From contig OZ244650.1 of assembly GCA_965218785.1 (NCBI GenBank), positions 320,001-384,000 of the forward strand: a stretch of DNA of 64,000 nt. The letters run 5' to 3'. The translations under genes and the position numbers were made by a program. Origin of the DNA: Nitrosopumilus sp. (GTDB taxonomy: Archaea > Thermoproteota > Nitrososphaeria > Nitrososphaerales > Nitrosopumilaceae). The notes below the pieces were generated by a model. That model was not told where the DNA came from and did no database searches. It saw only the letters and a program-made list of their open reading frames with translations. Shown here in pieces: positions 42,255 to 63,262 of the stretch (positions are counted from its first letter, which is position 1; every line of letters begins with the position of its first letter).

Positions 42255-42362
42255 ATGAAAGAGGACACTGTAACCATACCAAGAAAAACCCTTGAAGAGC
42301 TACAAAAATTCTTTGCAATGTATGTAAAAAATATGGACAAGATAGAGGCCGCCCTAAAATAA
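42255..42362 (+). CDS. 35-aa peptide MKEDTVTIPRKTLEELQKFF...
   Basis: ATG ORF with TTATAAA ~25 nt upstream; convergent with integrase. Confidence 0.45.
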   Translation: MKEDTVTIPRKTLEELQKFFAMYVKNMDKIEAALK

Positions 42363-42374
42363 TTCAGATGCTGA

Positions 42375-43694: not shown

Positions 43695-43699
43695 ATAGC

Positions 43700-43713
43700 A
43701 ACGGGTCTAGAGG
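43700..43713. repeat. att repeat of tRNA-Lys 3' end
   Basis: Identical to 53507-53520. Confidence 0.9.
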
Positions 43714-43927
43714 TTGTCGCAGCCACAGTGGATGCGGGTCTGCTTTGTAATAATGATGATGATGACAGAGGCGATTGGAACGCCTACAATATTCCTACAT
43801 TATTTTTTATTCTATTAGATATTATCATGAAAGTCATATGTTGATTTTGATCGATATTAATTATGACCAAAATGATCAGTATTATGAATAAAAGTTAATT
43901 TATTCTGTCAACTAATCATCCGTAATA

Positions 43928-44902: not shown

Positions 44903-44908
44903 ATAAGA

Positions 44909-45133
44909 CTAACAGTTGTCTTTGATTGTATTGTAATATATTTTCAAACCAATACTAAAGCCATCCTGACAAATTTTTTCTGCTCTATTACCTAGAATTT
45001 TTATTAACGCCTTGTTAAAATGCACACAATCGTCTATCTCGCAATTACATTTTTTATGTTCATTAAAATAATTTCTGAATCTATTAAAATCTTGTTCTAG
45101 TGTATCTGCTTCTACACTCCATTTTTTTTCCAT
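44909..45133 (-). CDS. Hypothetical protein
   Basis: 74-aa ATG ORF with Cys/His cluster. Confidence 0.45.
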   Translation of the reverse strand: MEKKWSVEADTLEQDFNRFRNYFNEHKKCNCEIDDCVHFNKALIKILGNRAEKICQDGFSIGLKIYYNTIKDNC

Positions 45134-45253
45134 AAATTCAATTTCATAAGTCAGGATCTTGTTAGGCGGTAACTAACTGTTTATGGATCATATTGATCTA
45201 TTTTAATTGACAAAAAGTAATCGTAGAAATTAGTAAATTATGATTTGTCCTTT

Positions 45254-48103: not shown

Positions 48104-50649
48104 TATTCAAGCCCGATGATCTTTAGGGATTCAATTCCACGGTCGTCGATTATTTTTACAGCTACTCTCTTGTTGGGACCTGCCTCAAACGGGATTGATT
48201 CTGTTCCATGATATTTTTCAATTAATTCTTCATCAATCTTAGATTGTAGTGTCTTTGCAAGTTTTGTCCAACCCCCAGTATTTCCCTCCATTGGAAAGAA
48301 CACCTGTTGCGGATAGACGCTTCTGCCGTCATAATCTTTATCTAGCATCCACATTGCAATCTTGGAAGCACTTCCTGATTCAACTTCACCGGTTCTTGTA
48401 TTGTAATAGTCAAAGCCGTTTACTGTTATGATGTATCTTTTATCTTTGGTTTTTTTCAGTTCAACATCGGGTTGACCCATAAGCCAGAATGATTCATTGC
48501 TTGAGCGTTTCTTTTTTAGATCCTGTGTTAAAAGATCCTTGTTCATCTCGACTTGTAGTATGGTAACATTAGGCCAATTTGTTTTTTCAATGTCTTTTGC
48601 AGCTTCAGGATCAAATTGCATTGCAGCAAAGATTATCATCTTGGGTTTTGGAATTAATGATTGCGCTTCTTCTAATGCCAATGCAACCTGACGTTGTTCT
48701 AGTGGAGCATGTTCAGGACCAAAGGATATCATTACACGTTTTGGTTTGTCTTCTTTTGTCTCAGCATCTGCATGAAGCCATTTAGTTGCAGGATGTGTTT
48801 CTACTTTGATAAATTCAATTTTTTGTTTATTTTTGCCACGTATTCCTGTCTTGGATAATTCTTCCCGCCATTGTTCTTGATGTGAAATTTGGAATGTTAA
48901 CGTATTTGTACTGAAATGTTCTTCAGACAAGATATCTAATGATTTTACAGTTGGAGATGGAACCGCCTCTACTGTAAATGGTCCGGTTATTCTAATTTTA
49001 TTTTTTTGTATAAACGGCTGATCATATAGTGTCTCTGTTTGCGGTGGTTCATTGTTAGCAATAGAGCCTAGTGTAATGTGTGGAACTGTCTTATATTCAA
49101 ACCCCGATGATATTCCTTCTTGTGGTTTATTCAATTGATAATAGTCAAATTTGGATGTCATCAATCTTTGTTTGGTTAATGCTATTGCAATTCGTGAGGT
49201 ATCACATGTGATCCAGCGTCGTCCCCACTGTTCTGCAACATATGCTGTTGTTCCAGAACCGCAAGTTGGATCAAGAACAATATCGCCTGGATCTGTTGTC
49301 ATCAATAGACATCTAGAAATTACTTTTGTCGAAGTTTGTACTGCAAAAATTTTCCCAAATTCACCTTGAGTATCATACCATATATTGTTTAATTCTGAAA
49401 CTGGATAGTCATCAAAATATCGTATATAATTAAGAGTATTACCAGGTGCAATTAACCTTCCTGCTTTCTCTAGACTATTCATGCCTTTCTTATTTGTTTG
49501 CCAACTTCTTCCTTTAACAGGATTAAATTTTTTCCCTTCAAATTCATATTCAAAAAACGTGCTATCTGAATATGCCATTGCTGAAAGTTTGTCGCCAATA
49601 AAAATTTTAGAGTCTATAGGCAAAAGATGAGGATTTATTTTTTCTTCATTTTTTAATGGTCTTCTACTTCCATCTGGAAATTCGACCCAATTGTATCTGC
49701 TATCTAAATTCATTGTTTTCTCAATGAAAATTGTATGAAACTTTGTCTTTTTCTTATCTTTTGCATACCATAAAATATAATCTGTTACTTGAGGAATGAA
49801 AACAGAAGTTATAACCCCTCTAGTTCTAAAATCAATAATGCTAATAAAATTTTGTGGCTTAAATATCTCATCTAAAATTTCTTTTACATGATGTAAATTT
49901 TCACTGGAAATCTGTACAAAAACACTACCACTTTCAGTAAGTAATTTTTGTGACAACAATAATCTATTTCTCAAATATCCCAAATAGGAATGAATTCCAA
50001 GCTCCCAGGTATCCCTGAACGCTTTTATCATTTCAGGTTCTTGTGTTAAATCTTCATCTTTACCATCCTTGACATCTCGTTTGTTTACAAACGGCTGAAA
50101 ATTTGAACCATATTTGATTCCATATGGAGGATCTATGTATATCATCTGCACCTTGCCTCCCATTCCTTCTTTTTCTAACAGTGAATTCATTACCAAAAGG
50201 GAATCTCCAGCAATCAGTCTGTTTGACCAGTTGTGTTCATGTTTGTAAAACTCTATGGCATCTCGTAATGGCGGATTATTCTCAGGTGTTTCAAAATAAT
50301 TAAACATGGTTGCCTGCTGTGCTATTTGTGGCTTCATTGCTTTTTCCAGAATAGTATGTGGATCAATTCTCTCATGGACATGCAAGGAGACGGTATCTAC
50401 CTCAAATTCGGAATTTTCTGTTTTCCCAGACCACTGTAATTGCGGATCAAGTCGCGGATTATACGTGTATTTCTTGCTTGGCTGATCGGGATCAGTTCCA
50501 GGAGTGACCAGCCCCACAGGAGGATTGTTTGGTCTTTTTGCATCTCCATGAGTATATTGATTGACTGTCTTTTTTTCCGACTTTAATTTGCTTTTTGAAC
50601 GATTGATTTTCTTCTTCAACACCCTCTTTGGCAAATTTATAGGACACAA
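48103..50649 (-). CDS. mod: Type III R-M N6-adenine methyltransferase
   Basis: IYIDPPY, LDPTCGSGTT, VKIIDDRGIES; TAATG coupling to res; start uncertain. Confidence 0.95.
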   Translation of the reverse strand: MCPINLPKRVLKKKINRSKSKLKSEKKTVNQYTHGDAKRPNNPPVGLVTPGTDPDQPSKKYTYNPRLDPQLQWSGKTENSEFEVDTVSLHVHERIDPHTILEKAMKPQIAQQATMFNYFETPENNPPLRDAIEFYKHEHNWSNRLIAGDSLLVMNSLLEKEGMGGKVQMIYIDPPYGIKYGSNFQPFVNKRDVKDGKDEDLTQEPEMIKAFRDTWELGIHSYLGYLRNRLLLSQKLLTESGSVFVQISSENLHHVKEILDEIFKPQNFISIIDFRTRGVITSVFIPQVTDYILWYAKDKKKTKFHTIFIEKTMNLDSRYNWVEFPDGSRRPLKNEEKINPHLLPIDSKIFIGDKLSAMAYSDSTFFEYEFEGKKFNPVKGRSWQTNKKGMNSLEKAGRLIAPGNTLNYIRYFDDYPVSELNNIWYDTQGEFGKIFAVQTSTKVISRCLLMTTDPGDIVLDPTCGSGTTAYVAEQWGRRWITCDTSRIAIALTKQRLMTSKFDYYQLNKPQEGISSGFEYKTVPHITLGSIANNEPPQTETLYDQPFIQKNKIRITGPFTVEAVPSPTVKSLDILSEEHFSTNTLTFQISHQEQWREELSKTGIRGKNKQKIEFIKVETHPATKWLHADAETKEDKPKRVMISFGPEHAPLEQRQVALALEEAQSLIPKPKMIIFAAMQFDPEAAKDIEKTNWPNVTILQVEMNKDLLTQDLKKKRSSNESFWLMGQPDVELKKTKDKRYIITVNGFDYYNTRTGEVESGSASKIAMWMLDKDYDGRSVYPQQVFFPMEGNTGGWTKLAKTLQSKIDEELIEKYHGTESIPFEAGPNKRVAVKIIDDRGIESLKIIGLE

Positions 50650-50714
50650 ATAATAGTGTTACACTATAAATTTTATGCTTAGAACTTTAGATTAAGAATG
50701 ATACATGCATTGAT

Positions 50715-51032
50715 GTGAACAAGTCAAAATTACCTCATCTCACCTCGATTTTGCGAATATTGGCAAAAAAGGGTGTTTATGATATTTTCTTACACATAAA
50801 AAATCAAGACAGTCTATACTATAACGATGTGTTAAATTATGCGATGAATAATCACATAATCAAAAGTCGTGCATCTGTAACCACCACCCTGAATTCTCTT
50901 ACAGAATATGGATTGCTTGAAAGAAACGTCGTACAAGATAAACCGGTAAGAGTTTGTTATATGGTAAGTGAAAAAGGATACAAAATGATTAGATATCTCA
51001 AAGAAATAGAAAAGATAACCAAAATAAAATAA
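50715..51032 (+). CDS. HxlR-like winged-HTH regulator divergent from mod
   Basis: SRASVTTTLNSLTEYGLLER..PVRVCYMVSEKG. Confidence 0.8.
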   Translation: MNKSKLPHLTSILRILAKKGVYDIFLHIKNQDSLYYNDVLNYAMNNHIIKSRASVTTTLNSLTEYGLLERNVVQDKPVRVCYMVSEKGYKMIRYLKEIEKITKIK

Positions 51033-51174
51033 CAGTAAAATATTCAATCATATAAAAAATAATTAAATTAATACATTTTATTGCACAATCTGTCTAATGT
51101 AGATTAAAAGTCATATTATCTTGTAATTAAAAATCAAGTTATGTAATAAAACATGTTAATTTTATGTATATGAG

Positions 51175-51786
51175 TTAAATAAAAATTTCATAAATTCGCA
51201 AACAATATCCTGTTTTAAATTCTACATCTGATATTTTTTTTATCCTACAATCAATCAGATTTTTTGATGTTTTGGCATATCTTTTGAATGTATCTGAACG
51301 TTCAATATTTTTTTCTTTACATCTGTCAATATACTGTTGATTTACATATGTACTACTTCCATCAAAAAAATCATTTAAGCAATTATTTCTAAAATAATTT
51401 ACCATTTTTTCATCAGCTACATATATTAGAAAACACTTTGAATCGGGAAATTTTATCTTGTATTTTGACATCTTGAATATATCACTAAAAACAGTTCCAG
51501 CCATCATTGGAAAAGGTCTAGTAGTGTTTCCAGTTGACGGTCTATGAAATTTTAATTCAAATACAAATTCAAACCCATGCATTGCTATGCGTAAGTCAAT
51601 CCGTGTGTTAGGTAATTCTAGTGGTGCGTATTCTATGCTTATTTGATCTTGATCGATCTGCACTTTGATAAATGCTTCAATCAACATATCACGAATTATG
51701 TGTTCTGTATTGTGTATCCTGGTTTCAAGTCTATGTTCGAGATTTCTGATAAAATCCTCAAAAACTGGATCGAGATCACTGTTCAT
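51175..51786 (-). CDS. PD-(D/E)XK-family nuclease-like protein
   Basis: TEH...IEY...RIDL...FELKF. Confidence 0.7.
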   Translation of the reverse strand: MNSDLDPVFEDFIRNLEHRLETRIHNTEHIIRDMLIEAFIKVQIDQDQISIEYAPLELPNTRIDLRIAMHGFEFVFELKFHRPSTGNTTRPFPMMAGTVFSDIFKMSKYKIKFPDSKCFLIYVADEKMVNYFRNNCLNDFFDGSSTYVNQQYIDRCKEKNIERSDTFKRYAKTSKNLIDCRIKKISDVEFKTGYCLRIYEIFI

Positions 51787-52061
51787 ATCAATTTACCTAA
51801 TATAGCATCAAGATCTTTTATTCTATTTGATAGATATTTGGATCTTTCTTCTTTTGGAATATATTTTGCACATTCCTGTAAATCCATTATATATTTTGTA
51901 AAAATCTTATCAAAGTTTTTGTCCACAATCTTGGCAGCCTTGCGCAGATTCTGTAAATTCAGATTCTCCAGATCATCCTTTCTTCCAAGAAAATACTGTG
52001 AATTGCCTGCCAGCAGGTACAGATATTCGGTTCCCTGCCGTCTTTTTATGAATATACCCAT
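51783..52061 (-). CDS. Small protein divergent from integrase, candidate directionality factor/regulator
   Basis: IKRRQGTEYLYL..YFLGR beta-rich basic motif; position. Confidence 0.65.
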   Translation of the reverse strand: MGIFIKRRQGTEYLYLLAGNSQYFLGRKDDLENLNLQNLRKAAKIVDKNFDKIFTKYIMDLQECAKYIPKEERSKYLSNRIKDLDAILGKLI

Positions 52062-52071
52062 GATTTATCTG

Positions 52072-52129
52072 TATCATGCTACATGATAAATCTTTAAATA
52101 AAGGTTTGTATCATATAACATGATACAAA
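52072..52129. promoter_or_regulatory. Bidirectional promoter flanked by two related palindromic operators
   Basis: TATCATG-CTA-CATGATA (52072-52088), CTTTAAATAAAG (52092-52103), TTTGTATCAT-N5-ATGATACAAA (52105-52129). Confidence 0.65.
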
Positions 52130-53401
52130 ATGACATTGAAGGCTGATCTCAAAGATAAAATATGCGTAAATTCCACATATTCCAAGAATGAAGTCGCCGA
52201 GAGGCTGACCGATATGGGAAAAAATAAACTGTATACAAAAGACACTGTCAAACAAACAAAAAAATCACGACTTCTTGCAAATCCAGACATACGAAGATGG
52301 TACGACAACATGGCTCGTGGAAGTGTAAATACCGCAGAAGGCCGTCTTAGGAGACTGGGACGCTTTTGTGAGATGCACCAGATGACTCCAAACCAACTTG
52401 TGGAACTTGCTCAAAAAGACATCAGAACTGCAACGGATCTCCTAGAGGATCACATTACCATGATGGAAGAAAAAAACAATTCTCCAGGATACATAGAAGA
52501 GCAGATCAAGACTGTAAAATCATGGCTAAGACACTTTGACATCGAGATAAAACGCAAGCTGAGGGTGAGTTGGGCAAATCTAACACCAACCCTGCAGGAT
52601 GAGCGGGTCCCTGATGGAACCGAGATGGCAGAAATTTACAGCCGGGCAGGACTCAGAGAATCCGTAGTAATATCTCTGATGGCAAAATCAGGTCTGCGTC
52701 CGGAAGTAATTGGAAACCACAATGGTACGGACGGTCTAAAGATCAGTGATCTGCCGGACATTGTAATACATCAAGGTAAGGTAAAGTGTATCAGAATGCC
52801 AAACAGAATTGTCGTACGACGACAATTATCAAAGGCAAGGCATCAATACTTTACGTTTGGTACTCAATCTGCAACAAACCACCTCATAGCATATCTCAAC
52901 GACAGACTAGCGCATGGTGAACCACTTCACGGGGATTCTCCGGTAGTTGCACCTGACTATATCTACAAGACAAACCGTGGTAGAAACTCTACAAAAACAT
53001 TTTTACCTACGCCACAGATAAGCAGTCTTGTCCGACAGGTGTTCCGACCAAGATTCACATGGAGACCATACGTGTTGAGACCATACTTTGATACACAGCT
53101 GTTAATTGCCGAATCAAAGGGCAAGATAGCACACGACTTTCGAGTATTCTTCATGGGACACAAAGGAACCATGGAGGCACGATACACCACAAACAAGGGA
53201 ATTCTGCCTGAGGTCTTGGTGGCTGAGATGCGTGAGGCATTTCTCAGATCAGAAGAACACCTAGAGCAGACAGATATCGACCCTGTACTGGAACAACGAG
53301 TAGAAGCCCAGAGCATCATACAGACTGCGACCCCAGAGCAGCTTGACCGAGTGCTAGAGGTGCTTTGCAGCACCGGCAAAACAGGCCAAGCCAGGTCGTA
53401 G
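52130..53401 (+). CDS. Tyrosine recombinase/integrase of element B
   Basis: KSGLRPE, YVLRPYF, FMGH, EARY; likely C-terminal domain continues in the -1 frame to 53502. Confidence 0.92.
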   Translation: MTLKADLKDKICVNSTYSKNEVAERLTDMGKNKLYTKDTVKQTKKSRLLANPDIRRWYDNMARGSVNTAEGRLRRLGRFCEMHQMTPNQLVELAQKDIRTATDLLEDHITMMEEKNNSPGYIEEQIKTVKSWLRHFDIEIKRKLRVSWANLTPTLQDERVPDGTEMAEIYSRAGLRESVVISLMAKSGLRPEVIGNHNGTDGLKISDLPDIVIHQGKVKCIRMPNRIVVRRQLSKARHQYFTFGTQSATNHLIAYLNDRLAHGEPLHGDSPVVAPDYIYKTNRGRNSTKTFLPTPQISSLVRQVFRPRFTWRPYVLRPYFDTQLLIAESKGKIAHDFRVFFMGHKGTMEARYTTNKGILPEVLVAEMREAFLRSEEHLEQTDIDPVLEQRVEAQSIIQTATPEQLDRVLEVLCSTGKTGQARS

Positions 53402-53508
53402 TTGATGGTCTTCAGGCTGAAAAACTCATTGCTTCAGGATACAGATTCGTTGGAAATCTGCCAAATGGCAAGATCGTGCTCGAAAAGAACCCGAATTCAT
53501 AGTGGTAA

Positions 53509-53582
53509 CGGGTCTAGAGGGATTCGGACCCTCGACAACCGGATTAAAAGTCCGGTGCGCTACCTGGCTGCGCCATAGACCC
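53509..53582 (-). tRNA. tRNA-Lys(TTT)
   Basis: GGGTCTA/TAGACCC acceptor, CCGGA-CTTTTAA-TCCGG anticodon arm; T loop reads TCCGAAT. Confidence 0.93.
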
Positions 53583-53677
53583 TCACGAAAATACTCTGCG
53601 CGTATAATTTAGTCTTTTACAAAATTTTTTGTCATGACCGAAACTTTTAATCTAGCACTTTGATTCAAAATATTAGT

Positions 53678-53752
53678 GCCCTTGTAGTATAGCCCGGTCT
53701 AGAATTCGGCCCTGTCACGGCTGAGACGCGTGTTCAAATCCCGCCGAGGGCG
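53678..53752 (+). tRNA. tRNA-Asp(GTC)
   Basis: GCCCTTG/CGAGGGC acceptor, anticodon loop CTGTCAC, TTCAAAT T loop. Confidence 0.93.
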
Positions 53753-53859
53753 CCTTGAACTTTTTTCCAAATCCCACAAATGGGCGTATTGCTCAAAAAA
53801 ATAAATCCCCAAAAAAAACCGGCTTAAATAGAGATCAGACTTTGTTGGTATCCCCCAAC

Positions 53860-54984
53860 ATGACTAGAAAAAATCCAGATGATATTCACAATTATGCAGG
53901 CAAGATACGCCGTATAAAAAAAAGACTAGCAGATATTCAACAGGGTGACGTATGTATTCAATTTCTTGACAAGCTAAAACTTGCAGGCAAAAAAGACGGC
54001 AGAATAGTTTACTATGCAGACAGACTTGGATATATCTTGAATTTGTTTAATGCAAAATTTACTTTGCCCGTACTCTTAAAAGATGCAACAAAGAACGACT
54101 GTGAATCAATACTGTCTGAAATAATATCAAACGAGTCATACAGGGGCGAGACAAAAAAGGCATATGCCATGGCACTATTGAGACTGGTTCACTATGCCAA
54201 GACCGGGGAGATTGGAGATAGAGACGAGAATCCATATGTGCCGGAGGTATCCTGGATAAAGCCATCTCGGTATATTGACAGAAGGGAGGAGACGGTACGG
54301 TCTGAGGATCTTCTTACATCCGATGAGATAGTCGGTCTTTTGGGACAGATATCAAACAGACATGACAGGGCAATGTTCTGGGTTTTGTTTGAAGGTGCAT
54401 TTCGAATTGGTGAACTCTTAAACATCAGGATTGGCGGAATAGATTTTCAGGACAACCATGTCTTTGTAACCACGCATGGAAAGACTGGAACAAAGCGAGT
54501 TACACTGGTAATATCCTTTCGTCCGCTACTTGACTGGATAAACGAGCATCCGAGGAGAAATGATCCAAACGCATTTCTGTGGACTCGATCCGGCAAGGGA
54601 GACAAAGTATCATATCATTATGTACGTACACATCTAAAGCAGTATGCCGCAGATGCGGGAATTGTAAAGAGGGTCTGGCTGTATCTGCTCCGTCACACAC
54701 AGTTGACACTTCTTGCCAAAAAACTCTCAGATCATACCCTTAGTGCATATGGCAATTGGAGCCCAAGCTCAAACATGGCAAAAAAGTATGTCCATTTATC
54801 TGGCAAAGATGTTGATAATGCCATCCTGGAGATGCACGGAATCAAGGGCAAGATACCAGAGTCTGATGTCATAACCCTTCGATCATGCACACGCTGTCAT
54901 GCGCAGAATACTCCTGACTGCCGGAGGTGCGTTGATTGTGGGTATGTTTCCAGCAGGCAAATACAAGGATCCATGAGTGTCTGA
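53860..54984 (+). CDS. Tyrosine recombinase/integrase of element C
   Basis: GAFRIGE, GKTG, YLLRH, KYVHL; C-terminal Zn ribbon; ATG 53860 follows TTAAATA box. Confidence 0.92.
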   Translation: MTRKNPDDIHNYAGKIRRIKKRLADIQQGDVCIQFLDKLKLAGKKDGRIVYYADRLGYILNLFNAKFTLPVLLKDATKNDCESILSEIISNESYRGETKKAYAMALLRLVHYAKTGEIGDRDENPYVPEVSWIKPSRYIDRREETVRSEDLLTSDEIVGLLGQISNRHDRAMFWVLFEGAFRIGELLNIRIGGIDFQDNHVFVTTHGKTGTKRVTLVISFRPLLDWINEHPRRNDPNAFLWTRSGKGDKVSYHYVRTHLKQYAADAGIVKRVWLYLLRHTQLTLLAKKLSDHTLSAYGNWSPSSNMAKKYVHLSGKDVDNAILEMHGIKGKIPESDVITLRSCTRCHAQNTPDCRRCVDCGYVSSRQIQGSMSV

Positions 54985-55083
54985 TTTGTATGCAATCTTT
55001 CTGATCCATCTGGTCTGAAATTGTGTGATGGAAAGGGCATGTTCGTACCAGATTCATAGGAAGATGACTCTGGATATTGTTAT

Positions 55084-55326
55084 TAGATTCAAAATCAGTG
55101 TAAAACCATTTTTTTGATACTAGATTCAAAATCAGGTGCAAAACCCTGTTTTCTGATACTAGATTCAAAATCAGTGCAAAACCCCATTTTCTGATACTAG
55201 TAGATTCAAAATCGATGCAAAACCCTGTTTTCTGATACTAGATTCAAAATCGATGCAAAACCCTGTTTTCTGATACTAGATTCAAAATCAGGTGCAAAAC
55301 CCTGTTTTCTGATACTAGATTCAAAA
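55084..55326. repeat. ~38-bp tandem array, ~6.3 copies
   Basis: TAGATTCAAAATC(A/G)..TGCAAAACCCTGTTTTCTGATAC units with small variants, non-coding. Confidence 0.92.
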
Positions 55327-55365
55327 AAAAAGAAAAAATTGGGTAGTAGGGGGGAGATGTTGTTG

Positions 55366-56190
55366 TCATCCTGCCAGTTTGTAAAGACCTGCAGCATTGC
55401 TCATCACCGGATCATCTGGCACCATAATCTTGAATCCCTTGAGCTTCGCTGTCAGCTCCTCGCGTACCCTGGGAATCAGGATGCCGCCGCCAGATACTAT
55501 GATGCTCTTAGTATACCCGTGTGCCTCTGCCATGTCTGATACCTCCAAGGCCAGATTCTCCGATAACGCCTTTGCATATCTGGAACATATGTCCCTGTGC
55601 TGTAACAGTGTCTTTGTGTCAAGATGTGCAAACCTGCCTATCTTGCGCGTGATGAACTCTGATGCCCACTCTAGGCTCTGTCCGTCAAGAATCTTGTTAT
55701 CCTCGATCATCACAATCTCGGATGTTCCCTGACCTATTGATACGACCATGCCTGTACTCTTGTTCATATCAACTAGTGTCCCGGCAGCTTGTGCCACCAC
55801 GTCACAGCTTTGTACTTTGGGTACCTTGCAGATGAGCTTGGTCATGGTGTTTTTGTAGCTGGCAGCCTCGTATGGCAGACCCACTATCACCCTGGCTTTT
55901 TCCATATCTGGCGTGTGGGCGGTTTGGTACACCCTGTCTATGGATTCCCGTACCAGCATATCTACCTGTTTTTGGTATCTCTTTTGCGGTCTTCCCCGGC
56001 ATATGGGACTGATTGCCGTAGTCCCGGCGGTTTTTAGCATCTGTGTGGCCTTGTCTCCTATTGCCTCTGATACGCTCTTGGTCCACTGCCCGTTGATTCG
56101 CCTTGCATAAAGCGATGGGAACTTGAACCTGCAGTAATCAGAGACACACTTTACAAAGCCCGTTCCGATGTCCAGTCCTATCTTTATCAT
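55366..56190 (-). CDS. Actin-like ATPase (ParM/StbA/MreB/MamK superfamily)
   Basis: GLDIGTGFVK (phosphate 1), QAAGT, SIGQGTSE (phosphate 2), VSGGG (adenosine), DDPVMSNAAG; start moved to ATG 56190. Confidence 0.88.
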   Translation of the reverse strand: MIKIGLDIGTGFVKCVSDYCRFKFPSLYARRINGQWTKSVSEAIGDKATQMLKTAGTTAISPICRGRPQKRYQKQVDMLVRESIDRVYQTAHTPDMEKARVIVGLPYEAASYKNTMTKLICKVPKVQSCDVVAQAAGTLVDMNKSTGMVVSIGQGTSEIVMIEDNKILDGQSLEWASEFITRKIGRFAHLDTKTLLQHRDICSRYAKALSENLALEVSDMAEAHGYTKSIIVSGGGILIPRVREELTAKLKGFKIMVPDDPVMSNAAGLYKLAG

Positions 56191-56204
56191 ACCATAACTA
56201 GCTG

Positions 56205-56218
56205 GGATACATTTAAGG
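56205..56218 (-). promoter_or_regulatory. Promoter CCTTAAATGTATCC of actin-like gene
   Basis: Identical 14-mer at 57778-57791, at the same distance from the AbrB-like start. Confidence 0.75.
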
Positions 56219-56357
56219 GCAAAAATCATGCGTGGAACGGCAGGCACAATTTTGTTGGTTGGGGAATCTTTGCTGCATCAGTAAATGATTCTGATACCCA
56301 TCGTCTTTGTCTGTGTCGTATTTGATTTGTCCGGAACTGTGCCTGCCCTTGATGGCA

Positions 56358-56441
56358 GTACGTGCGTGTGCGTGTGCGTGTGCGTGTGCGTGTGCGTGTG
56401 CGTGTGCGTGTGCGTGTGCGTGTGCGTGTGCGTGTGTGCAT
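56358..56441. repeat. (CGTGTG)x12 microsatellite inside an 84-bp purine-pyrimidine alternation
   Basis: Read directly; perfect units 56365-56436. Confidence 0.95.
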
Positions 56442-56589
56442 TCATCAAAAAACCCCCTTACAAAGAATGATTTCAAGACTACTGTAACAGGTTAGGTCAA
56501 ACACAGATTTGTCGTCTGTAGGCATAGAGGTAAGCTTACAGATTACTAATCAAAAATTATTTATTAGCCATGCCGTACACTACAACACT

Positions 56590-57459
56590 TTGACAAAGAT
56601 CGATTATACCAATACCTCTATACACGCATCCACCAGATCACTGCTTGATAAGATCATCCCGATAATAAAGGACTATGAGGAGAGGGGATACCGCATGACT
56701 GTCAGACAGCTGTACTACCAGCTCGTATCTAGAAACATTGTAACAAACGAGATCTCATCCTATCAGAAGACAAGCAAGGTCCTTACCACGGGCCGCATGC
56801 ACGGCCTGATTGACTGGAATATGATAGTGGACAGGATCCGCGTCCCAATAATGCCAAGCCAGTTTTATACACTGGGCTTGTTTATACATGCCGTAAAAAG
56901 ATCATACCGCAGACACAGATGGGATGACCAGGAAAACTATGTCGAGGTGATGGTTGAAAAGGAGGCACTTGTAGGAATACTAGGGCCGATAACAGACAAG
57001 TACCACGTATCATTACTAGTCAACAAGGGTTATGCGTCAGCTAGTGCCATGCATGATGTCGCAATAAGAATGCAGCAGCATAGCGATGAAAAGCGCTGTT
57101 ACATACTATACATGGGGGATCATGATCCAAGCGGCATCGACATGGTGCGTGACATCAGGGACAGGCTGGAAACGTTCGGGCAAAAACCCACCATACAGCG
57201 CATTGCCCTCACAGAGGAGCAGATAAAGCAGTATGACCCCCCGCCAAACCCCGCAAAGAAATCGGATCCTAGATCAAAGGGATACTATGAGAAATATGGT
57301 GATAGTTCTTGGGAACTTGATGCACTTGACCCGCAGGTACTGGCATCCATTCTGGAGGATAACATAAAAAAATATCTTGATGAAGAAAAATACAATGCCG
57401 TCATTCAAAAAGAAGACCAAGAAAAAGACGCGCTTGAAAAACTAACCGATGAACTCTAG
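56590..57459 (+). CDS. Topo VI-A/Spo11-like (Mini-A-type) wHTH-TOPRIM protein
   Basis: TVRQLYY (candidate catalytic Tyr), VEVMVEK, GDHDPSG, RIALT, ELDAL; probable TTG start 56590. Confidence 0.8.
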   Translation: MTKIDYTNTSIHASTRSLLDKIIPIIKDYEERGYRMTVRQLYYQLVSRNIVTNEISSYQKTSKVLTTGRMHGLIDWNMIVDRIRVPIMPSQFYTLGLFIHAVKRSYRRHRWDDQENYVEVMVEKEALVGILGPITDKYHVSLLVNKGYASASAMHDVAIRMQQHSDEKRCYILYMGDHDPSGIDMVRDIRDRLETFGQKPTIQRIALTEEQIKQYDPPPNPAKKSDPRSKGYYEKYGDSSWELDALDPQVLASILEDNIKKYLDEEKYNAVIQKEDQEKDALEKLTDEL

Positions 57460-57478
57460 ATACGCAGATTTTGGCAGG

Positions 57479-57763
57479 TTACATGCGCAGTCCCTCAAAT
57501 TTTGAAGTGTCTGTCTCCTGTCGTCTGTCTGCGGCATCATACACACGGCCCTGCTCATCTGCACTGTCTGCTGATTCATGATTTGTGGCATCCCCCGCCG
57601 GATTCAGGCGTATGGGATTGACAGTTAGACAGTTATTAGATATAACAAACTCCACATACTGATCCCTTTTGATTCCAAGTGTGCGGACTATCTGTCTTGG
57701 TATTGTGACAGTGTAAGAGCCCTGGCGGAACTGGATTTTTCTGATGATTCTAGATGATTCCAT
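57479..57763 (-). CDS. AbrB/MazE/SpoVT-type DNA-binding protein with acidic tail
   Basis: RKIQ..GSYTVTIPRQIVRTLGIKRDQYVEF; start moved to ATG 57763. Confidence 0.85.
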   Translation of the reverse strand: MESSRIIRKIQFRQGSYTVTIPRQIVRTLGIKRDQYVEFVISNNCLTVNPIRLNPAGDATNHESADSADEQGRVYDAADRRQETDTSKFEGLRM

Positions 57764-57777
57764 GTGATGTAATCCCC

Positions 57778-57791
57778 GGATACATTTAAGG
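57778..57791 (-). promoter_or_regulatory. Promoter CCTTAAATGTATCC of AbrB-like gene
   Basis: Identical to 56205-56218. Confidence 0.75.
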
Positions 57792-58150
57792 TGCATTTTG
57801 TGCATTTTGTGCATATTATACCTGAATTTTGGTGGTTCAAAACTTGCAGTTACTCTACAAAACGAGATCAACGAACTATTCAATTGTGTAAAAAACAGAC
57901 ATGGGAAGATTTCATCTCCCACTCCCACTTTATTTCAAGTTCATCTGGGGCGGGCCGGCCGGAACTGTACTGGGATAAAATCAGGGGAGAAACGATAGGA
58001 TGTTGACCCGTCATTCAGAAACAATCAATCACTTAGATGAAAATATTTTGGTCTCCAAGCCCTACCAGTTGGAGTTAATTCGGTGTACGACTCTGGAGAA
58101 AATTTTGAACAAGCCACTCTATTTTGGACTTTCAGACCACGGGGAATATC

Positions 58151-58913
58151 CGGCGGCTCACGTCCTGGCGGCTCTCCACTTCTGGGCTCTCCACTTTGAG
58201 GCTCTCAACTCTCCGGGCTCTCAACTTTGGGGTCTTCTTTTGAGGCTCTCAACTCTCCGGGCTCTCAACTTTGGGGTCTTCTTTTGAGGCTCTCAACTCT
58301 CCGGGCTCTCAACTTTGGGGTCTTCTTTTGAGGCTCTACACCTCTGGGCTCTTCACTTTCCGGGCTCTATTCTTCGAAGGCTCGCGTCTCATGTGGGGTT
58401 CATATCATATCCAAGACTCACGGCTCATACCACGACTCATACCACGGCTCATGTCATATCTCATACCATAACGGCTCATACCACGGCTCATACCACGGCT
58501 CATACCATAACGGCTCATACCATAACGGCTCATACCATGACGGCTCATATCATAAATCATACCATAACGGCTCATACCATAACGGCTCATACCATAACGG
58601 CTCATATCATAAATCATACCATAACGGCTCATACCATAACGGCTCATCTCACGGCTCACACCACGGCTCAAGCCTCCTGTTCCTAGAGTTCGTGTCAAGA
58701 CTCCATACACTGGGGCTCTACCTCCAGCACCAGGACTTCACCTCCAGTACCAGAGCTTCACTACAAAGGCTCCACCTTCATCAACAAGGTTCTACATCAG
58801 GACTCTACCTCCACCAATGGGACTCTACATCAAGACTCCACCTCCACAAGGCTCCTGTATTCAGGACTCGGCGGCTCACGTCTCCCGGACTACGCTTTCG
58901 GGCTCTCAACTTT
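58151..58913. repeat. Composite GGCTC-core repeat region: 3 x 44 bp (58198-58329), 12-15-bp ACGGCTCATACC(ATA) array (~58420-58670), degenerate tail
   Basis: Read directly; bracketed by CGGCGGCTCACGTC at 58151 and 58869. Confidence 0.9.
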
Positions 58914-59103
58914 GACCAGATAACAAGAATTACACACGGCTGCTCTTTGATATGCAGAAGTTTGGTTTTGATTTTGGATGTTATTTGTTGGAATCTTAAT
59001 CTTTCAATCAGGATTTAATCTCTGATGCGCGTTTTGGCCAAACACCGGCGTATCCTGAACTATTGATAGCACGTGTTAAATAATATATGATTTTTCTCAT
59101 ATT

Positions 59104-60504
59104 GTGAACAAGGCAGTAATTGGGGTGATTACACTCTTTGTACTTGGTATCATGGCAGCATCCTCGGCATCAGCTGAGAACACCCAAGACAAACAGTGTA
59201 GGGACATCCACGTACTAGTTGAGAGATCAAACGGCAGTCTTGCCTGTATGACTGAAAAAACAGCAGAGAGGGCAGCAGACAGGTTTGGCTGGAAGATAAT
59301 AACTGTGAATCCAGCAGACAAAACGGTGTCAGACCCTGAAAATCCAAAGTTGCAGGACGACGGGCGGGATGAGGTGGACGGTACTGAATCATCATCAGAC
59401 CAGGCTGCAAATTCCGAACAGAACGCCCGCCCCAAGACCCAAAGTAACAGTGGCACCTTTTGCAACAACGGCGTTTGTAAAGAAATCCCCTACGGGGAGA
59501 CAATCGAGTTTGAGCAGACAGGACACGTCCAAAAAACTGTGGATGGCAAGTTGGTCATAGAAGAGGAAAAGATTCCCACAACCGTCACCATTGGTACGTA
59601 TCCCGAGAAAATACTCAAGGACTGTACTCCCACGGATGGCATCATGCAGTGGGGTGATCTATACAACGGTTCAAAAATTTTAGAGCCGCTGCAAAGGGAG
59701 ATTGATTCAGGCAAGACGCGGCTGTGTGTGTCAATATTTTTCAGTGCCGGTACTATAGATCAGGTTCACGGCTTTCTAGCTGATGAACTTGGTGTAGACG
59801 TAGAAGGAAGTAGAAATGACAGGGGGCGGCACATCATCTACGATTCTGATAATGCGCTTTATGCTGTAATTCCAGTATCGTTAATCGGTGATGTTGCAGA
59901 CAGGGATGATGTCGTAAACATTGACGTGTATGGAAAGAATACGTCGACACCATATCACATAGAACGTGGTCATAGTTCCAAAATAAGTCCGTTACTGCAA
60001 AAGGAGGTTGAACACAAGCAAAAAAACTGTACGTATGAAGAAGACTTTCCCGATACATGTCCGCCCTTACGACAGAATTCAGACGGAGAGTATCTTGTTC
60101 ATGTTGCGATTAGAACTGAGCATATTACCCGGCAGGATGTTAAACTGGATTTCATAAATACAAATGGTATGAGCGCATATTACAATCAAAATTCACGCAA
60201 AGCCGCGAATGATGCAATAAATGCTGAAACTGCCAAACAAAACAAGGTATTGGCACAGCCAGTATTTGATTTCCTTAAAGAGAATAATATGATTAAATCC
60301 TGGTATGTTCCAAAAGAAGACCACTCTGCTACTGATAGGTCCTCAGGTACAAACGGAAGGATGTTATATTATTCAAATATTAATCTTATTTACATCATCA
60401 TACCAATAGATCTTCTTCCACATCTGGTTGAATTAGATTCGGTCTGGTTTGTTGATACCACAAATTACGTTTCACGGGTTAATGATTTTCAATGGAGACA
60501 GTAG
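59104..60504 (+). CDS. Exported protein with Cys-pair N-terminal domain and two propeptide-like repeats
   Basis: Signal peptide; CRDIHVLVERSNGSLAC..GW; YAVIPVSLI..DDVVNID and YIIIPIDLL..DSVWFVD. Confidence 0.75.
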   Translation: MNKAVIGVITLFVLGIMAASSASAENTQDKQCRDIHVLVERSNGSLACMTEKTAERAADRFGWKIITVNPADKTVSDPENPKLQDDGRDEVDGTESSSDQAANSEQNARPKTQSNSGTFCNNGVCKEIPYGETIEFEQTGHVQKTVDGKLVIEEEKIPTTVTIGTYPEKILKDCTPTDGIMQWGDLYNGSKILEPLQREIDSGKTRLCVSIFFSAGTIDQVHGFLADELGVDVEGSRNDRGRHIIYDSDNALYAVIPVSLIGDVADRDDVVNIDVYGKNTSTPYHIERGHSSKISPLLQKEVEHKQKNCTYEEDFPDTCPPLRQNSDGEYLVHVAIRTEHITRQDVKLDFINTNGMSAYYNQNSRKAANDAINAETAKQNKVLAQPVFDFLKENNMIKSWYVPKEDHSATDRSSGTNGRMLYYSNINLIYIIIPIDLLPHLVELDSVWFVDTTNYVSRVNDFQWRQ

Positions 60505-60636
60505 AAGAGGAAAATTTGTGTTGTTATTCCGAATTATCTTATTAGATTCATGATGTAACTAAAGCTACACCTGCTCCCTGAATCCCATACTATCAAAATA
60601 CACCATCCTTAAATAGAGATCAGATCGCCAAATGTT

Positions 60637-60816
60637 GTGAATCTTTTTGTCTGCATTATTGCCGTATTTTTTATATTTGGTACGATCTTTGTGAATTATT
60701 CTTTTGCCCAGTCATCTAACAGTACCGAGACTGTAATGCAGGATATCTTGGTCCACAAGATGGTAAATGGCACCTTTGTCATAGAGCGCGAACAGATAGA
60801 GGCTACAATACCATAA
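60637..60816 (+). CDS. 59-aa exported peptide related to part of 59104-60504
   Basis: GTG start after TTAAATA box; signal peptide; VHKMVNGTFVIEREQI resembles VQKTVDGKLVIEEEKI. Confidence 0.55.
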   Translation: MNLFVCIIAVFFIFGTIFVNYSFAQSSNSTETVMQDILVHKMVNGTFVIEREQIEATIP

Positions 60817-61001
60817 AAAAAACATACATAGCAGTTGCAGTCGTTGCCGTGATTGCAGTTACAGCCGTATCATACGGCATGATCGTAGTAGCCACGACGA
60901 CATTTTACGGAGAAGATAATTCCTTAACAGTGGAACCCGCACCAATAATGGAACGGGCGCTAGGACTTCGGGACCCATATGAACTGGAAGAAGAACCTTG
61001 A
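60813..61001 (+). pseudogene. Small TM ORF lacking a standard start (ATA)
   Basis: KKTYIAVAVVAVIAV... open 62 codons; CCATAA where a coupled CCATGA would be expected. Confidence 0.4.
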
Positions 61002-61105
61002 ACTTTTTTCCAAATCCCCAAAAACCTCAGATCCCTGTAAACTTTTGACTATTTTGTAGATTTTGAGTGAAGTTTAGTGAGAAGATACTCTTTGAACAGT
61101 GGCAT

Positions 61106-61333
61106 GGCAACTATGGTATCTGGACGTGGGATATTGCGTTCCATCCAAGTGATGTTTGGGGAATAATTGACAAGCATAACAAGACTCAAGTGTCGGCAAG
61201 GGAGCATACAAAGTGTCCCAATTGCTTCATGATTGCATAGTCAAGGCAGGAGATTGAGAATGAGTTTGGATTCAGAAACATGAATGGAATTAGCAGACCT
61301 AAATCGTGGTGCAGAGGGTGCAGGACGGCATGA
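61106..61333 (+). pseudogene. Remnant of type III res 3' end
   Basis: GNYGIWTWDIAFHPSDVWGIIDKHNKTQVSA..CPNC..FGFRNM..SWCRGCR aligns with Res C-terminus (45254-45484); in-frame TAG at 61238. Confidence 0.92.
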
Positions 61334-61449
61334 ATTCTACATAAAACACAATTCGGAAAATGTATCTTTTCAGACTAATCTGTCTTCCATAATATAACAG
61401 AGTCATTTATCTAAATGTTTAAGTTTATACAAATTTAGAACATACATAA

Positions 61450-62652
61450 TTGTCAAAAAAGAACAATCCTTTCAATCCTGGATCTGGGGCAGTTCCGCCC
61501 TATTTGGCAGGTCGCAGATTTGAATTAGAATCATTTTCAAAAATGTTGGCAAATATTCAGGATGATCAAATTGAAAATCTACTAATGTATGGATTAAGAG
61601 GTACAGGAAAAACCGTTCTAATGAATGAATTCAACAAAATGTGTAGAACTAAAAAATTACTACCTATAAAAAGACCTCAATTTAATCTAAAATACTGTGA
61701 TCCTGTTGAATTTACTAAATCTCTCAAATACGATTTACGAATAGCCATAGAAACTTTTTCAAAAATTAAAAAACTAGAGAGGAAATTTCTTTCTTCTGTT
61801 AATTATCTTAAACCTAAAAGTGCCGGTATACCCGGTATGTTTTATTACGAGCCTTCATACAAGTCTACCTCCAATATTCCATTAGAAGATCACCTAAAAT
61901 CTTATTTGGTTAAAAATTGGGAAATAATTAAAAATAGTGACTATGATGGTGTTGTTTTTCTTTTTGATGAATTCCATGCTATCAAAGACATTAAATCTAA
62001 AGGTTGGTTTACATTAGCTGATTTTTTAGGAGTTATTAACGAAGTCCAAAATCAAGGATGTGGATATTATGTTGTGTTATGTGGCTTGCCAACATTACAA
62101 ATTAATGTTAAAGAATCAAGATCCTATTCTGAAAGAATGTTTAAGTCATTAGAGATTTCCAACTTAAAACCAAATGAAGCAAAATCTGCAATAATTGAAC
62201 CATTAAAGAAGAGCAGCTATAAATTTACATCAAATTTAGTTACTAAAATTGTTAATGATACGGAAAGTTATCCATATTTTGTTCAATTTTACTGCAAAGA
62301 AATAATCAATAATACCAATAAAAAAAATATCACGATAAAGGATTATGAATTAATTAAAAATTCCATCATTCAACAGTTGGAATATAATTTCTTTGATCCA
62401 CGGATGGAAATGTTAAGTAATGATGAAAGAATTGTTCTTAATTCTATGTCAACTATTAAAAATAAAAATATTCCATTTAAAATCATTGAACTAAAATCAA
62501 AAATGGATAAAAGAAAACTTTCAAAATATCTCATTAGATTGGAAGAAAAAGGTCTTGTGTACAAGCATACTCATGCTGTTTATCGTTTCTCAGTTCCAAT
62601 GTTAAGGAATTATCTTCTGCATAAAATGTCGACAAAAAATGTCGACTATTGA
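61450..62652 (+). CDS. P-loop AAA/STAND-like ATPase with C-terminal winged HTH
   Basis: NPFNPGSG..PPYLAGR, GLRGTGKT, FLFDEFH, SYPYFVQ, RLEEKGLV. Confidence 0.88.
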   Translation: MSKKNNPFNPGSGAVPPYLAGRRFELESFSKMLANIQDDQIENLLMYGLRGTGKTVLMNEFNKMCRTKKLLPIKRPQFNLKYCDPVEFTKSLKYDLRIAIETFSKIKKLERKFLSSVNYLKPKSAGIPGMFYYEPSYKSTSNIPLEDHLKSYLVKNWEIIKNSDYDGVVFLFDEFHAIKDIKSKGWFTLADFLGVINEVQNQGCGYYVVLCGLPTLQINVKESRSYSERMFKSLEISNLKPNEAKSAIIEPLKKSSYKFTSNLVTKIVNDTESYPYFVQFYCKEIINNTNKKNITIKDYELIKNSIIQQLEYNFFDPRMEMLSNDERIVLNSMSTIKNKNIPFKIIELKSKMDKRKLSKYLIRLEEKGLVYKHTHAVYRFSVPMLRNYLLHKMSTKNVDY

Positions 62653-62899
62653 TTTTAGTATGAAATGTCGACAAAGTCGACAAAAAATGTCGACTATTGA
62701 TTTTAGTATGAAATGTCGACAAAGTCGACAAAAAATGTCGACTATTGATTTTAGTATGAAATGTCGACAAAGTCGACAAAAAATGTCGACTATTGATTTT
62801 AGTATGAAATGTCGACAAAGTCGACAAAAAATGTCGACTATTGATTTTAGTATGAAATGTCGACAAAGTCGACAAAAAATGTCGACTATTGATTTTAGT
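62623..62899. repeat. 48-bp perfect tandem array (5 full units plus partials) containing 17 GTCGAC palindromes
   Basis: GTCGACTATTGATTTTAGT recurs at 62641, 62689, 62737, 62785, 62833, 62881. Confidence 0.95.
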
Positions 62900-62908
62900 G
62901 AATAAATA

Positions 62909-63097
62909 GTGACCCCGTACGAGATCGCTAAAGCGATCTCGTACGTGTTACCATATTTTTTTTTGTATATCGTCATCCAAGGGGTCGTGGTAATTGCAAG
63001 AAAAGTGCGTAATGACCTGATGACTGCAGATGGAATAAGGCTGTTTGGGATATTGATGACGTACATTCTGACATGGCACAGATGGGGGAGGAGCTAA
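62909..63097 (+). CDS. Small two-TM membrane protein
   Basis: Two hydrophobic segments; GTG start. Confidence 0.45.
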   Translation: MTPYEIAKAISYVLPYFFLYIVIQGVVVIARKVRNDLMTADGIRLFGILMTYILTWHRWGRS

Positions 63098-63245
63098 ATA
63101 CGACAGAAAAACTGCCTTGAGATACTAGGGTCGATCTAATCATTTACAGCACGATCTGACTAAAATTTATATTCCTGACATACTACACAATAGCGATCAG
63201 ATGACTCAAACTGCACAGAGTCAGGGCGCTGTTCCGCAGCTAAAG

Positions 63246-63262
63246 AATCCCGCCGAGGGCGC
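63246..63262. repeat. att repeat of tRNA-Asp 3' end
   Basis: Identical to 53737-53753. Confidence 0.92.

Follow-up and report, generated by a model that had tools for sequence, protein, structure and literature searches.

The window analyzed here is a 64,000-nucleotide stretch of a Nitrosopumilus sp. genome (GenBank assembly GCA_965218785.1, contig OZ244650.1, positions 320,001 to 384,000). Toward its right end, a small cryptic element of 7.2 or 9.5 kb is integrated at a tRNA-Asp gene of this ammonia-oxidizing Nitrosopumilaceae archaeon, and a gene for a Topo mini-A protein (Mini-A) is part of the backbone of that element. The host genome is 1.99 Mb in two contigs and contains the Mini-A gene and the adjacent actin-like gene once each. 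Loci compared with the window are numbered with L and genomes with G. The Mini-A gene and its two neighbors are as follows:

56509..57459, plus strand: Topo mini-A gene (probable start TTG 56590), with R66 and Y70 in the 5Y-CAP, E150 and D204xD206xxG209 in the Toprim domain, and the T2BI box W268ELDAL273.
55366..56229, minus strand: actin-fold (ParM/MreB-like) NTPase, 287 amino acids as called in the database and 293 amino acids from a GTG at 56247.
57479..57763, minus strand: SpoVT/AbrB-type DNA-binding protein of about 94 amino acids from the ATG at 57763, matching Pfam MazE_antitoxin at 6.4e-5, just under the cut-off.

The Mini-A open reading frame (ORF) has 316 codons and begins with TTG. 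An alternative in-frame TTG at 56590, which is also the start used in the first-pass annotation of this DNA, gives a protein of 289 amino acids. This second start is reasonable because the homologues are about 290 amino acids long (range 270–330) and because residues 1–26 of the long form are disordered, with a predicted local distance difference test (pLDDT) score below 50 in the AlphaFold2 model.

The first-pass annotation had pointed to RQLYY, VEK, and DHD motifs in a protein of about 290 amino acids, and all three are present. They read R66-Q-L-Y69-Y70, V149-E150-K151, and D204-H205-D206, the last followed by P-S-G209. Across an alignment of 54 Mini-A homologues (47–66% identity), R66, Q67, Y70, E150, K151, D204, H205, P207, and G209 are invariant, and D206 is nearly so. 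Y69 is found in at least 90% of the homologues, in agreement with the R-x-x-[Y/F] pattern before the catalytic tyrosine. The T2BI box, S267-W268-E269-L270-D271-A272-L273, matches the subfamily signature xWELDAL; E269, D271, and L273 are invariant, and W268 and A272 are present in at least 90%. Judged by this alignment, the motifs are a conserved family signature and not a chance likeness.

Topo mini-A was defined by Takahashi, Da Cunha, Krupovic, Mayer, Forterre, and Gadelle (2020, NAR Genom Bioinform, PMC7671362). The signatures listed in the main text of that paper are a length of about 300 residues, R-x-x-[Y/F] before the tyrosine, a Toprim E plus DxDxxG, and the xWELDAL box, which sets Mini-A apart from Topo VI and Topo VIII. 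The family is further described there as lacking a B subunit nearby and as being carried by mobile elements. All of the published sequence signatures are shared by the window protein. [quoted passage not shown]

Residues 30–315 match phrog_6247 of PHROGs, labeled “DNA topoisomerase”, at 7.4e-91. A tblastn search identified 84 phage records with a homologue, 74 of which cover at least 80% of the query. The phage homologues are 37–44% identical to Mini-A and come from Flavobacterium, Xylella, Xanthomonas, Listeria, Pseudomonas, and other phages; proteins annotated “DNA topoisomerase” in Listeria, Pseudomonas, Xylella, and Flavobacterium phages have 39–44% identity. At least 7,998 clusters of the protein collection match at E <= 1e-5, and the closest named relatives are proteins of Nitrosopumilus metagenome-assembled genomes. 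No NCBIfam family is matched. The sole Pfam match, DUF2399 (the JetD C-terminus), is below threshold, with an E-value of 0.038 and 14.2 bits against a cut-off of 23.4 bits.

The AlphaFold2 model of Mini-A has a pLDDT of 87.7 and a predicted template modeling (TM) score of 0.81. A Foldseek search of the PDB with this model places Topo VI-A first (1d3y, E 2.6e-6, probability 1.0), followed by 9o8p, 9o0g, and 2zbk; the Topo VI structures ranked after 1d3y are from M. mazei and S. shibatae. The Wadjet-type nuclease MksG (8b7f, 1e-3) and Spo11 (8uru, 0.018) follow lower down. The alignment of Mini-A with Top6A spans about 290–320 columns. A weak hhalign comparison with the host Top6A (E 0.085) pairs VEK with IEK and GDHDPSG with TDGDVYG. 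The earlier description of a stand-alone protein of the Topo VI-A/Spo11 and Mini-A type is therefore borne out by the four sequence signatures and by the Foldseek ranking.

Mini-A shares the catalytic tyrosine and the acidic Toprim residues with Topo VI-A and Spo11, and Topo VI-A is its best structural match. Unlike Topo VI-A, it has no B partner and lacks the 5Y-CAP's N-terminal portion that binds Top6B. Canonical topoisomerase VI is an A2B2 enzyme with a full 5Y-CAP, the A gene of which is paired with a GHKL B gene. Pfam detects no GHKL/Bergerat ATPase among the ORFs of 50.7–63.9 kb, as the first-pass annotation had said of the element, and TP6A_N (PF04406) matches the host gene at C1:1647557 and not the Mini-A ORF. 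The host Top6A/Top6B pair is located at G000:C1:1647557-1648604, about 1.27 Mb from Mini-A. Topoisomerase VIII, with fused or adjacent B and A moieties and an RVELNAM box, also differs from Mini-A, which has no ATPase moiety and a WELDAL box.

The likeness to MksG and the weak DUF2399 match raise the possibility that Mini-A is a conflict nuclease, for defense or anti-defense, comparable to the Toprim nucleases JetD and MksG and cutting the DNA of competitors or of the host. The Topo VI-A-like fold is common to Mini-A and these Wadjet proteins, and a defense island with a type III restriction-modification system (45254–50649) lies next to the element. However, the motif set of Mini-A, with its WELDAL box, is a different one, the DUF2399 score is under its cut-off, and Pfam finds no SMC-like partner of the JetABC/MksBEF kind in the element or among the neighboring genes. 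The homologue in phage PaMx25 is part of a replication/recombination module, and in thaumarchaeal elements Mini-A is a conserved backbone gene instead of variable cargo. This explanation has very little chance of being correct.

Mini-A had been described as lying between an actin-like gene and an AbrB-type gene, which are its left and right neighbors, respectively. Pfam supports both assignments, the second just under its cut-off, and NCBIfam and structural modeling also support the first. The actin-like protein matches Pfam MreB_Mbl (8.5e-12) and ALP_N (1.3e-5) and phrog_691, “partition protein” (2.7e-14). Its AlphaFold2 model has a pLDDT of 92.1, and the best Foldseek matches in the PDB are MreB, Mbl, and actins, with E-values of about 1e-17 to 1e-15 and TM-scores of 0.6–0.75. 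The family comprises 213 clusters, the named members of which are from Nitrosopumilaceae/Nitrosotenuis, and its alignment contains conserved DxGxxxxK, GQGT, and SGGG segments. The second phosphate-binding segment (window residues 164–171) reads S-I-G-Q-G-T-x-E, and its serine is invariant. In MreB, ParM, and actin, an aspartate stands at this position. The invariant serine may bear on nucleotide hydrolysis.

The AbrB-type gene is convergent with Mini-A, and ATG 57763 is its likely start as read from the sequence. Its product is a candidate regulator or a candidate centromere-binding adaptor. The arrangement resembles the type II partition system ParMRC, in which an actin-fold NTPase on a mobile element is likewise found near a small DNA-binding protein and tandem repeats. 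ParR, the adaptor of ParMRC, is a ribbon-helix-helix protein. The adaptor candidate here is instead of the AbrB type, its gene does not share an operon with actin, and the repeats are found downstream of the actin gene. On sequence grounds, the candidates for adaptor and centromere are the AbrB-type protein and the arrays at 55084–55326, 57791–57814, and 58170–58670. A complex prediction for Mini-A (residues 28–316) and the actin-like protein (residues 12–287) gave a score of 0.00 against a mark of 0.32, a value that speaks neither for nor against binding.

A toxin-antitoxin pair, with Mini-A as the toxin and the MazE/AbrB-type protein as the antitoxin, was also considered and rejected. The two genes are convergent in the window, and the actin gene stands between them in L018/L020/L021, L026/L027/L042, and L182-185. 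Further genes also separate them in L018/L020/L021 and L182-185, but not in L026/L027/L042.

The association of Mini-A with the actin family was surveyed in one draw of 401 Nitrosopumilaceae genomes, with rows of one split gene merged. The actin family is matched in 60 of these genomes, often several times per genome, and Mini-A in 27. The actin family is present on the same contig within 3 kb at 17 of the 35 Mini-A places. Without two genomes flagged as unpublished (G312, paired, and G285, unpaired), the count is 16 of 33. The value of 17 of 35 is a lower bound because at four of the unpaired places (G269:C264, G357:C97, G210:C86, and G123:C303) the contig ends no more than about 2 kb away. 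In a separate search of genome_contigs, the best 80 Mini-A loci comprise 15 from Nitrososphaerota and 65 non-thaumarchaeal loci. A gene of this actin family is beside Mini-A in nine of the former and in none of the latter. The two surveys cannot be added together because their genomes partly overlap.

Pfam was applied to 150 of the 182 neighboring ORFs (230–480 amino acids, within 4 kb) of the non-thaumarchaeal loci, and no actin family is among the 25 commonest families. These 25 families include integrases, resolvases, helicases, SNF2, methylases, ThyX, and exonucleases. In IMG/VR, the single Mini-A protein matched one distant locus at 39% identity, and the Mini-A alignment matched 80 loci, all at most 52% identical. 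A scan of IMG/VR with the actin alignment found no relative, and the actin profile gave one weak match among 81 IMG/VR Mini-A loci, 7 kb from Mini-A.

The order of the paired genes varies. The two genes are divergent in the window, L017, and L019; actin is upstream of Mini-A in L023 and directly downstream in L020, L021, L026, L027, and L042. One or two genes lie between them in L018 and in the distant subgroup L182-L186. A quick tree of 34 Mini-A sequences places the actin-linked members in three groups of seven, four, and six rows, with Shimodaira–Hasegawa-like approximate likelihood ratio test values of 99, 97, and 100, respectively, the last on a very long stem. This tree requires a minimum of three changes of linkage state. 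The pairwise identities of Mini-A and actin co-vary across 14 paired loci (Pearson 0.84; none of 2000 permutations as high), a correlation to be taken as descriptive only, given the non-independence of related loci.

Of the 18 distinct loci with both actin and Mini-A, 13 have an AbrB-type gene, and in three of the remaining five the contig ends where this gene would be expected. The set of integrase, Mini-A, actin-like, and AbrB-type genes recurs in three Mini-A clades, with Mini-A identities as low as 35%. The Nitrosopumilaceae genome G334 (L182-L185) contains four copies of a module of about 5.5 kb, composed of an integrase, Mini-A (35–39% identical to that of the window), (a GNAT acetyltransferase), a 316-amino-acid protein without assignment, the actin-like protein, and the AbrB-type protein. 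A common alternative without actin contains Mini-A, a protein of 430–496 amino acids without assignment, a small ORF, and a second integrase type (L011, L013, L015, L022, and L024).

The actin/Mini-A pairing is thus real but partial; it is lineage-specific and not obligatory. The linkage is not confined to one genome and recurs in related elements, although it is absent at 18 of the 35 Nitrosopumilaceae places. The further proposal of a function coupled to the actin module fares less well. About half of the thaumarchaeal Mini-A genes have no actin neighbor, most actin genes have no Mini-A, no non-thaumarchaeal locus has the actin family, and in tailed phages Mini-A is found in replication/recombination modules. 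Adjacency can be explained without biochemical coupling, since co-inheritance on one mobile-element backbone suffices.

Coupling of this kind would mean that Mini-A, working without ATP as a topoisomerase, decatenase, or resolvase, unlinks or resolves sister copies of the element so that the actin-like filament can push them apart. This is improbable. Mini-A is homologous to the cleavage subunit of a decatenating enzyme, it adjoins actin at nearly half of the Nitrosopumilaceae places in divergent, upstream, and downstream arrangements, and the two proteins diverge in step. Yet type IIB strand passage is known to require the ATPase B subunit. The unpaired half of the Mini-A places, the lack of the actin family at the 65 non-thaumarchaeal loci, and the single distant and weak match in the 81 viral loci also argue against it, and the tyrosine recombinase of the element could itself resolve dimers. 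The actin family also occurs much more frequently where Mini-A is absent (60 genomes, compared with 27), and its usual neighbor is a VirD4-like ATPase.

Twenty actin-family loci without Mini-A were examined. In 13 of them, actin is beside a VirD4/TraG-like protein of about 1040 amino acids, together with an AbrB-type gene, and two adjoin prepilin-peptidase and TFIIB genes, as in thaumarchaeal integrative and conjugative elements (ICEs). The actin gene is thus shared by a broad range of thaumarchaeal integrative elements, only some of which have Mini-A. The commonest actin-family set (L191-L200, L202, L204, and L205) has three genes: actin, the gene for the VirD4/TraG-like protein of about 1040 amino acids, which also has a DUF7343 domain, and, on the opposite strand, an AbrB-type gene. 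The position between actin and AbrB that this ATPase usually takes is filled by Mini-A in the window.

These gene orders bear on the idea that Mini-A is a relaxase-like nickase for horizontal transfer, which would remain attached to DNA through Y70 and pass it to a VirD4-like ATPase, encoded in cis in larger relatives and acting in trans here. L018, L020, and L021 have the order integrase, Mini-A, actin, the 1040-amino-acid VirD4/TraG-like ATPase, and AbrB. The occurrence of the actin family beside genes typical of thaumarchaeal ICEs is consistent with this idea, and the main text of Krupovic et al. (2019, PMC6563490) gives no relaxase candidate for those elements. Against a transfer role, the same text notes that conjugation in archaea may transfer DNA in double-stranded form and without any relaxase. 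Most modules with actin and a VirD4-like gene (the 13 of 20 above) have no Mini-A, the window element and the g32 subgroup have Mini-A without a VirD4-like gene, and many tailed phages, which are not conjugative, carry Mini-A. A transfer nickase is accordingly a distinctly improbable identity for Mini-A.

The remaining features of the element, from left to right, are as follows:

53678..53754, plus strand: tRNA-Asp (GTC), the integration target (ARAGORN).
53737-53753, plus strand: left copy of the attachment (att) core at the tRNA-Asp 3’ end, AATCCCGCCGAGGGCGC, found as a direct repeat in the sequence.
53860..54984, plus strand: tyrosine integrase (XerA/XerC-like), Pfam Phage_integrase 5e-16 and NCBIfam XerA_Arch 4.6e-17, the latter below its cut-off.
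55084..55326, no strand: tandem array of 38–39 nucleotides, 6.3 copies, a short way downstream of the stop of the actin gene; possible centromere or origin repeats (Tandem Repeats Finder, TRF).
56362..56436, no strand: (GTGCGT) microsatellite, 12.5 copies, inside the divergent actin/Mini-A intergenic region of 260–340 nucleotides (TRF).
57791..57814, no strand: candidate operator, the 9-nucleotide repeat GTGCATTTT in 2.7 copies, 28 nucleotides upstream of the AbrB start (TRF).
58170..58670, no strand: candidate iterons in non-coding DNA, 44 nucleotides in 4.3 copies (58170–58359) and 12/15 nucleotides in about 19 copies (58419–58670) (TRF).
59104..60504, plus strand: ORF466, cargo without an assigned family, 466 amino acids with a hydrophobic N-terminus and only a sub-threshold WING-49 match.
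60996..61023, no strand: 28-nucleotide repeat of the post-tRNA sequence 53753–53780, 26 of 28 identical; the alternative right end, giving a 7.2 kb unit.
61450..62652, plus strand: AAA+ ATPase, 400 amino acids, with a faint likeness to Orc1/Cdc6 (Pfam AAA_16 1.8e-6; TIGR02928 3.1e-4, far under its cut-off; PDB Cdc6 2qby E 0.11).
62628-62899, no strand: perfect tandem array of 48 nucleotides, 5.7 copies, beginning inside the last 25 nucleotides of the AAA+ ATPase gene and continuing past it.
63246..63262, no strand: right copy of the 17-nucleotide tRNA-Asp core, found as a direct repeat in the sequence; the end of the 9,509-bp unit (53754–63262).

The listed integrase ORF starts at 53755, with 53860 as the position of its first ATG. 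In L020, L021, L023, L025, L088, L182-185, and L189, Mini-A is flanked by homologues of this integrase (“IntC4”). A further integrase gene, homologous to the first, starts at 63374 and continues toward the end of the window; because it follows the second core copy, a tandem array of elements at the tRNA-Asp site is indicated. L017, the closest relative, has a 38-nucleotide array of 2.6 copies at the position equivalent to 55084..55326, with CTGATACTAG-TTCAAAA in common with the window array. In L018, L020, and L021, 22-nucleotide repeats with an ATGCAT motif are found upstream of the AbrB genes. A homologue of the AAA+ ATPase directly follows Mini-A in L088. The 48-nucleotide array at 62628–62899 produces long artefactual ORFs on both strands. 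Neither Pfam nor PHROGs recognized a capsid, portal, or terminase gene among the ORFs of the element.

Four public sequencing runs, all as assembled contigs, were compared with the window. Their contigs break at the (GTGCGT) microsatellite, vary in copy number at the arrays of 58170–58670, and diverge near the repeat at 60996, with loose ends and joints at 61012–61045. One contig of run X1 leads from 53753 directly into TTTAATCCT, the sequence after 63262, and represents a junction without the 9.5 kb segment. The junction hints at the segment being a separate unit that may still be mobile. A second joint in the same run, 63328 to 53905 (“goes back 9424”), has ends off the att cores, unlike the expected circle junction, and no circle was deduced from it; a hybrid sequence or a related element among the population may account for it. 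In run X2, the contig with Mini-A and AbrB (56445–57873) has a word depth of 1153.6, compared with 48–100 for the integrase and actin contigs and about 54–63 on the chromosome side. In run X1, from the same sample, the Mini-A/AbrB contig has a depth of 65, compared with 58–65 and 42. The excess in X2 was not used as evidence, because contig depths give no ranking of genes and no run type is recorded.

Some elements of this kind are deteriorating. Mini-A copies broken by stops or frameshifts are present in L014, L015, L188, and L190. The window element could, by analogy, be a decaying relic in which Mini-A is open but has no remaining role; it is without genes found in the larger relatives, and the second repeat at 60996 suggests a past rearrangement. 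There is little chance that this is the case. The Mini-A ORF is full length with every family-invariant residue, there is no damage to the integrase, actin, or AbrB genes either, and a junction without the element is present in one run.

The best overall explanation, held with modest confidence, is that Mini-A is the element’s own DNA-cleaving enzyme, plausibly its replication initiator, and that the actin-like protein, the AbrB-type protein, and the repeats form a partition module. Mini-A would cut the element’s own DNA through Y70, with Mg2+ at E150/D204/D206, and form a 5’-phosphotyrosyl link. It would serve the replication of the excised circle, most likely as an initiator whose nick or break yields a 3’-OH. 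The actin-like NTPase, the AbrB-type protein, and the repeat arrays would act as a ParMRC-like partition module for the same circle. Mini-A and actin would then be neighbors because both belong to the replicon-maintenance backbone, and they are not known to act on each other.

The separate parts of this explanation differ in strength. A role for Mini-A in the replication or processing of the element’s DNA is probable, for five reasons. Mini-A is the only recognizable DNA enzyme besides the integrase in 53.8–61.0 kb. Profile scans of the recurrent neighbor families C3, C5, C7, C8, C10, C13, n41, and n43 identified none as a known replication protein. In phage PaMx25, Mini-A is found between a ligase gene and Sak4/Cas4-exonuclease/helicase genes, with a primase upstream. 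In the skuldviruses of Asgard archaea, Topo mini-A has been proposed as a rolling-circle replication initiator, and the available text places thaumarchaeal homologues in the same Mini-A clade (Medvedeva et al., 10.1101/2021.07.29.453957). Finally, many thaumarchaeal cryptic elements are without a replication-protein candidate in the main text of PMC6563490.

The more specific assignment of Mini-A as the initiator is tentative. More specific still, and rather unlikely as a whole, is the view of Mini-A as an initiator nickase, a Toprim-tyrosine analogue of the HUH Rep proteins and relaxases, in a family of small integrative plasmids of ammonia-oxidizing archaea. Their four-gene backbone would provide integration through the tyrosine integrase, replication through Mini-A, and actin-driven segregation through the actin-like NTPase, an AbrB-type adaptor, and iterons.

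Several observations weigh against Mini-A as a replication enzyme of the element, or against parts of that explanation. Top6A and Spo11 cut as dimers, and their product is a double-strand break instead of a nick. Should the element extend to 63262, the AAA+ ATPase with its faint Orc1/Cdc6 likeness could be the initiator instead. ORF466, C5, C7, C8, and n41 could be replication proteins that profiles do not recognize. Mini-A is not a general sole initiator, since phages with Mini-A carry their own primase and helicase. The evidence for current mobility is thin, consisting of the one contig of run X1 with a 9-letter overhang and the unexplained joint of 63328 to 53905, which does not fit the expected circle. 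Sequence and profile searches of the PDB with Mini-A returned no Topo VI, and the best matches were unrelated proteins with E-values of 0.21–0.5. The TM-scores of the Mini-A model to Topo VI-A are low (0.34–0.36, with a root-mean-square deviation of about 15 Å) because the two domains differ in orientation, and the fold assignment therefore rests on the Foldseek probability and the motifs. The passages on Mini-A in PMC7671362 and PMC8185306 report no biochemical activity for any member of the family.

The replication role is best compared with two groups of known elements. The skuldviruses and other Asgard mobile elements described in the available text of Medvedeva et al. are, like the window element, small circular archaeal elements with Mini-A and no other recognizable replication protein. 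They differ in being viruses with double jelly-roll capsid genes and in having no reported actin-like partner, whereas the window element has an actin-like neighbor and no viral hallmark gene was found in it. The thaumarchaeal cryptic integrated elements and ICEs of Krupovic et al. are, as characterized in the main text, likewise small and tRNA-integrated, with a tyrosine integrase and no obvious replication protein. The Mini-A paper ties the family to viruses and proviruses in its main text, whereas the carrier here looks like a cryptic, integrated, plasmid-like element.

No published description of the integrase/Mini-A/actin/AbrB backbone in Nitrosopumilaceae was found in the full-text literature, a search that did not cover the supplements of PMC7671362 and PMC6563490. 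The first-pass annotation, which knew of no described actin and Mini-A pairing, agrees with this result. The main text of PMC7671362 is silent on conserved actin-like and AbrB-type neighbors; “actin” matches only “Actinobacteria/Actinobacterium” there, and ParM and partition are not mentioned. The main text of PMC6563490 has no mention of actin, ParM, MreB, AbrB, or Toprim.

The type IIB topoisomerase/Spo11 lineage has three branches, and because Mini-A is one of them, its role bears on the origin of that lineage. The elements are unusually small, with an integrase, Mini-A, an actin-like protein, an AbrB-type protein, and a few repeats, so that each function has only a handful of possible carriers. 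With an element this small, the role of Mini-A could become accessible to study. Such an element could also be a starting point for plasmid vectors of ammonia-oxidizing archaea, which are still lacking and the need for which is stated in the main text of PMC6563490. If Mini-A were indeed an initiator nickase, this would be the first function for the family, and the element would be a minimal replicon with a type II partition system for Thaumarchaeota.

A second integrated island is located to the left of the element (41000–53600) and ends beside a tRNA-Lys gene (53509–53582, minus strand). Its recognizable features are as follows:

45254-48103 and 48103-50649: Res and Mod, respectively, of the type III restriction-modification system.
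50715-51032: HxlR-type regulator.
52130-53401: second tyrosine-recombinase-like gene (“IntC1”), with no Pfam match.

Homologues of IntC1 flank the Mini-A elements without actin in L011, L013, L015, L022, and L024.

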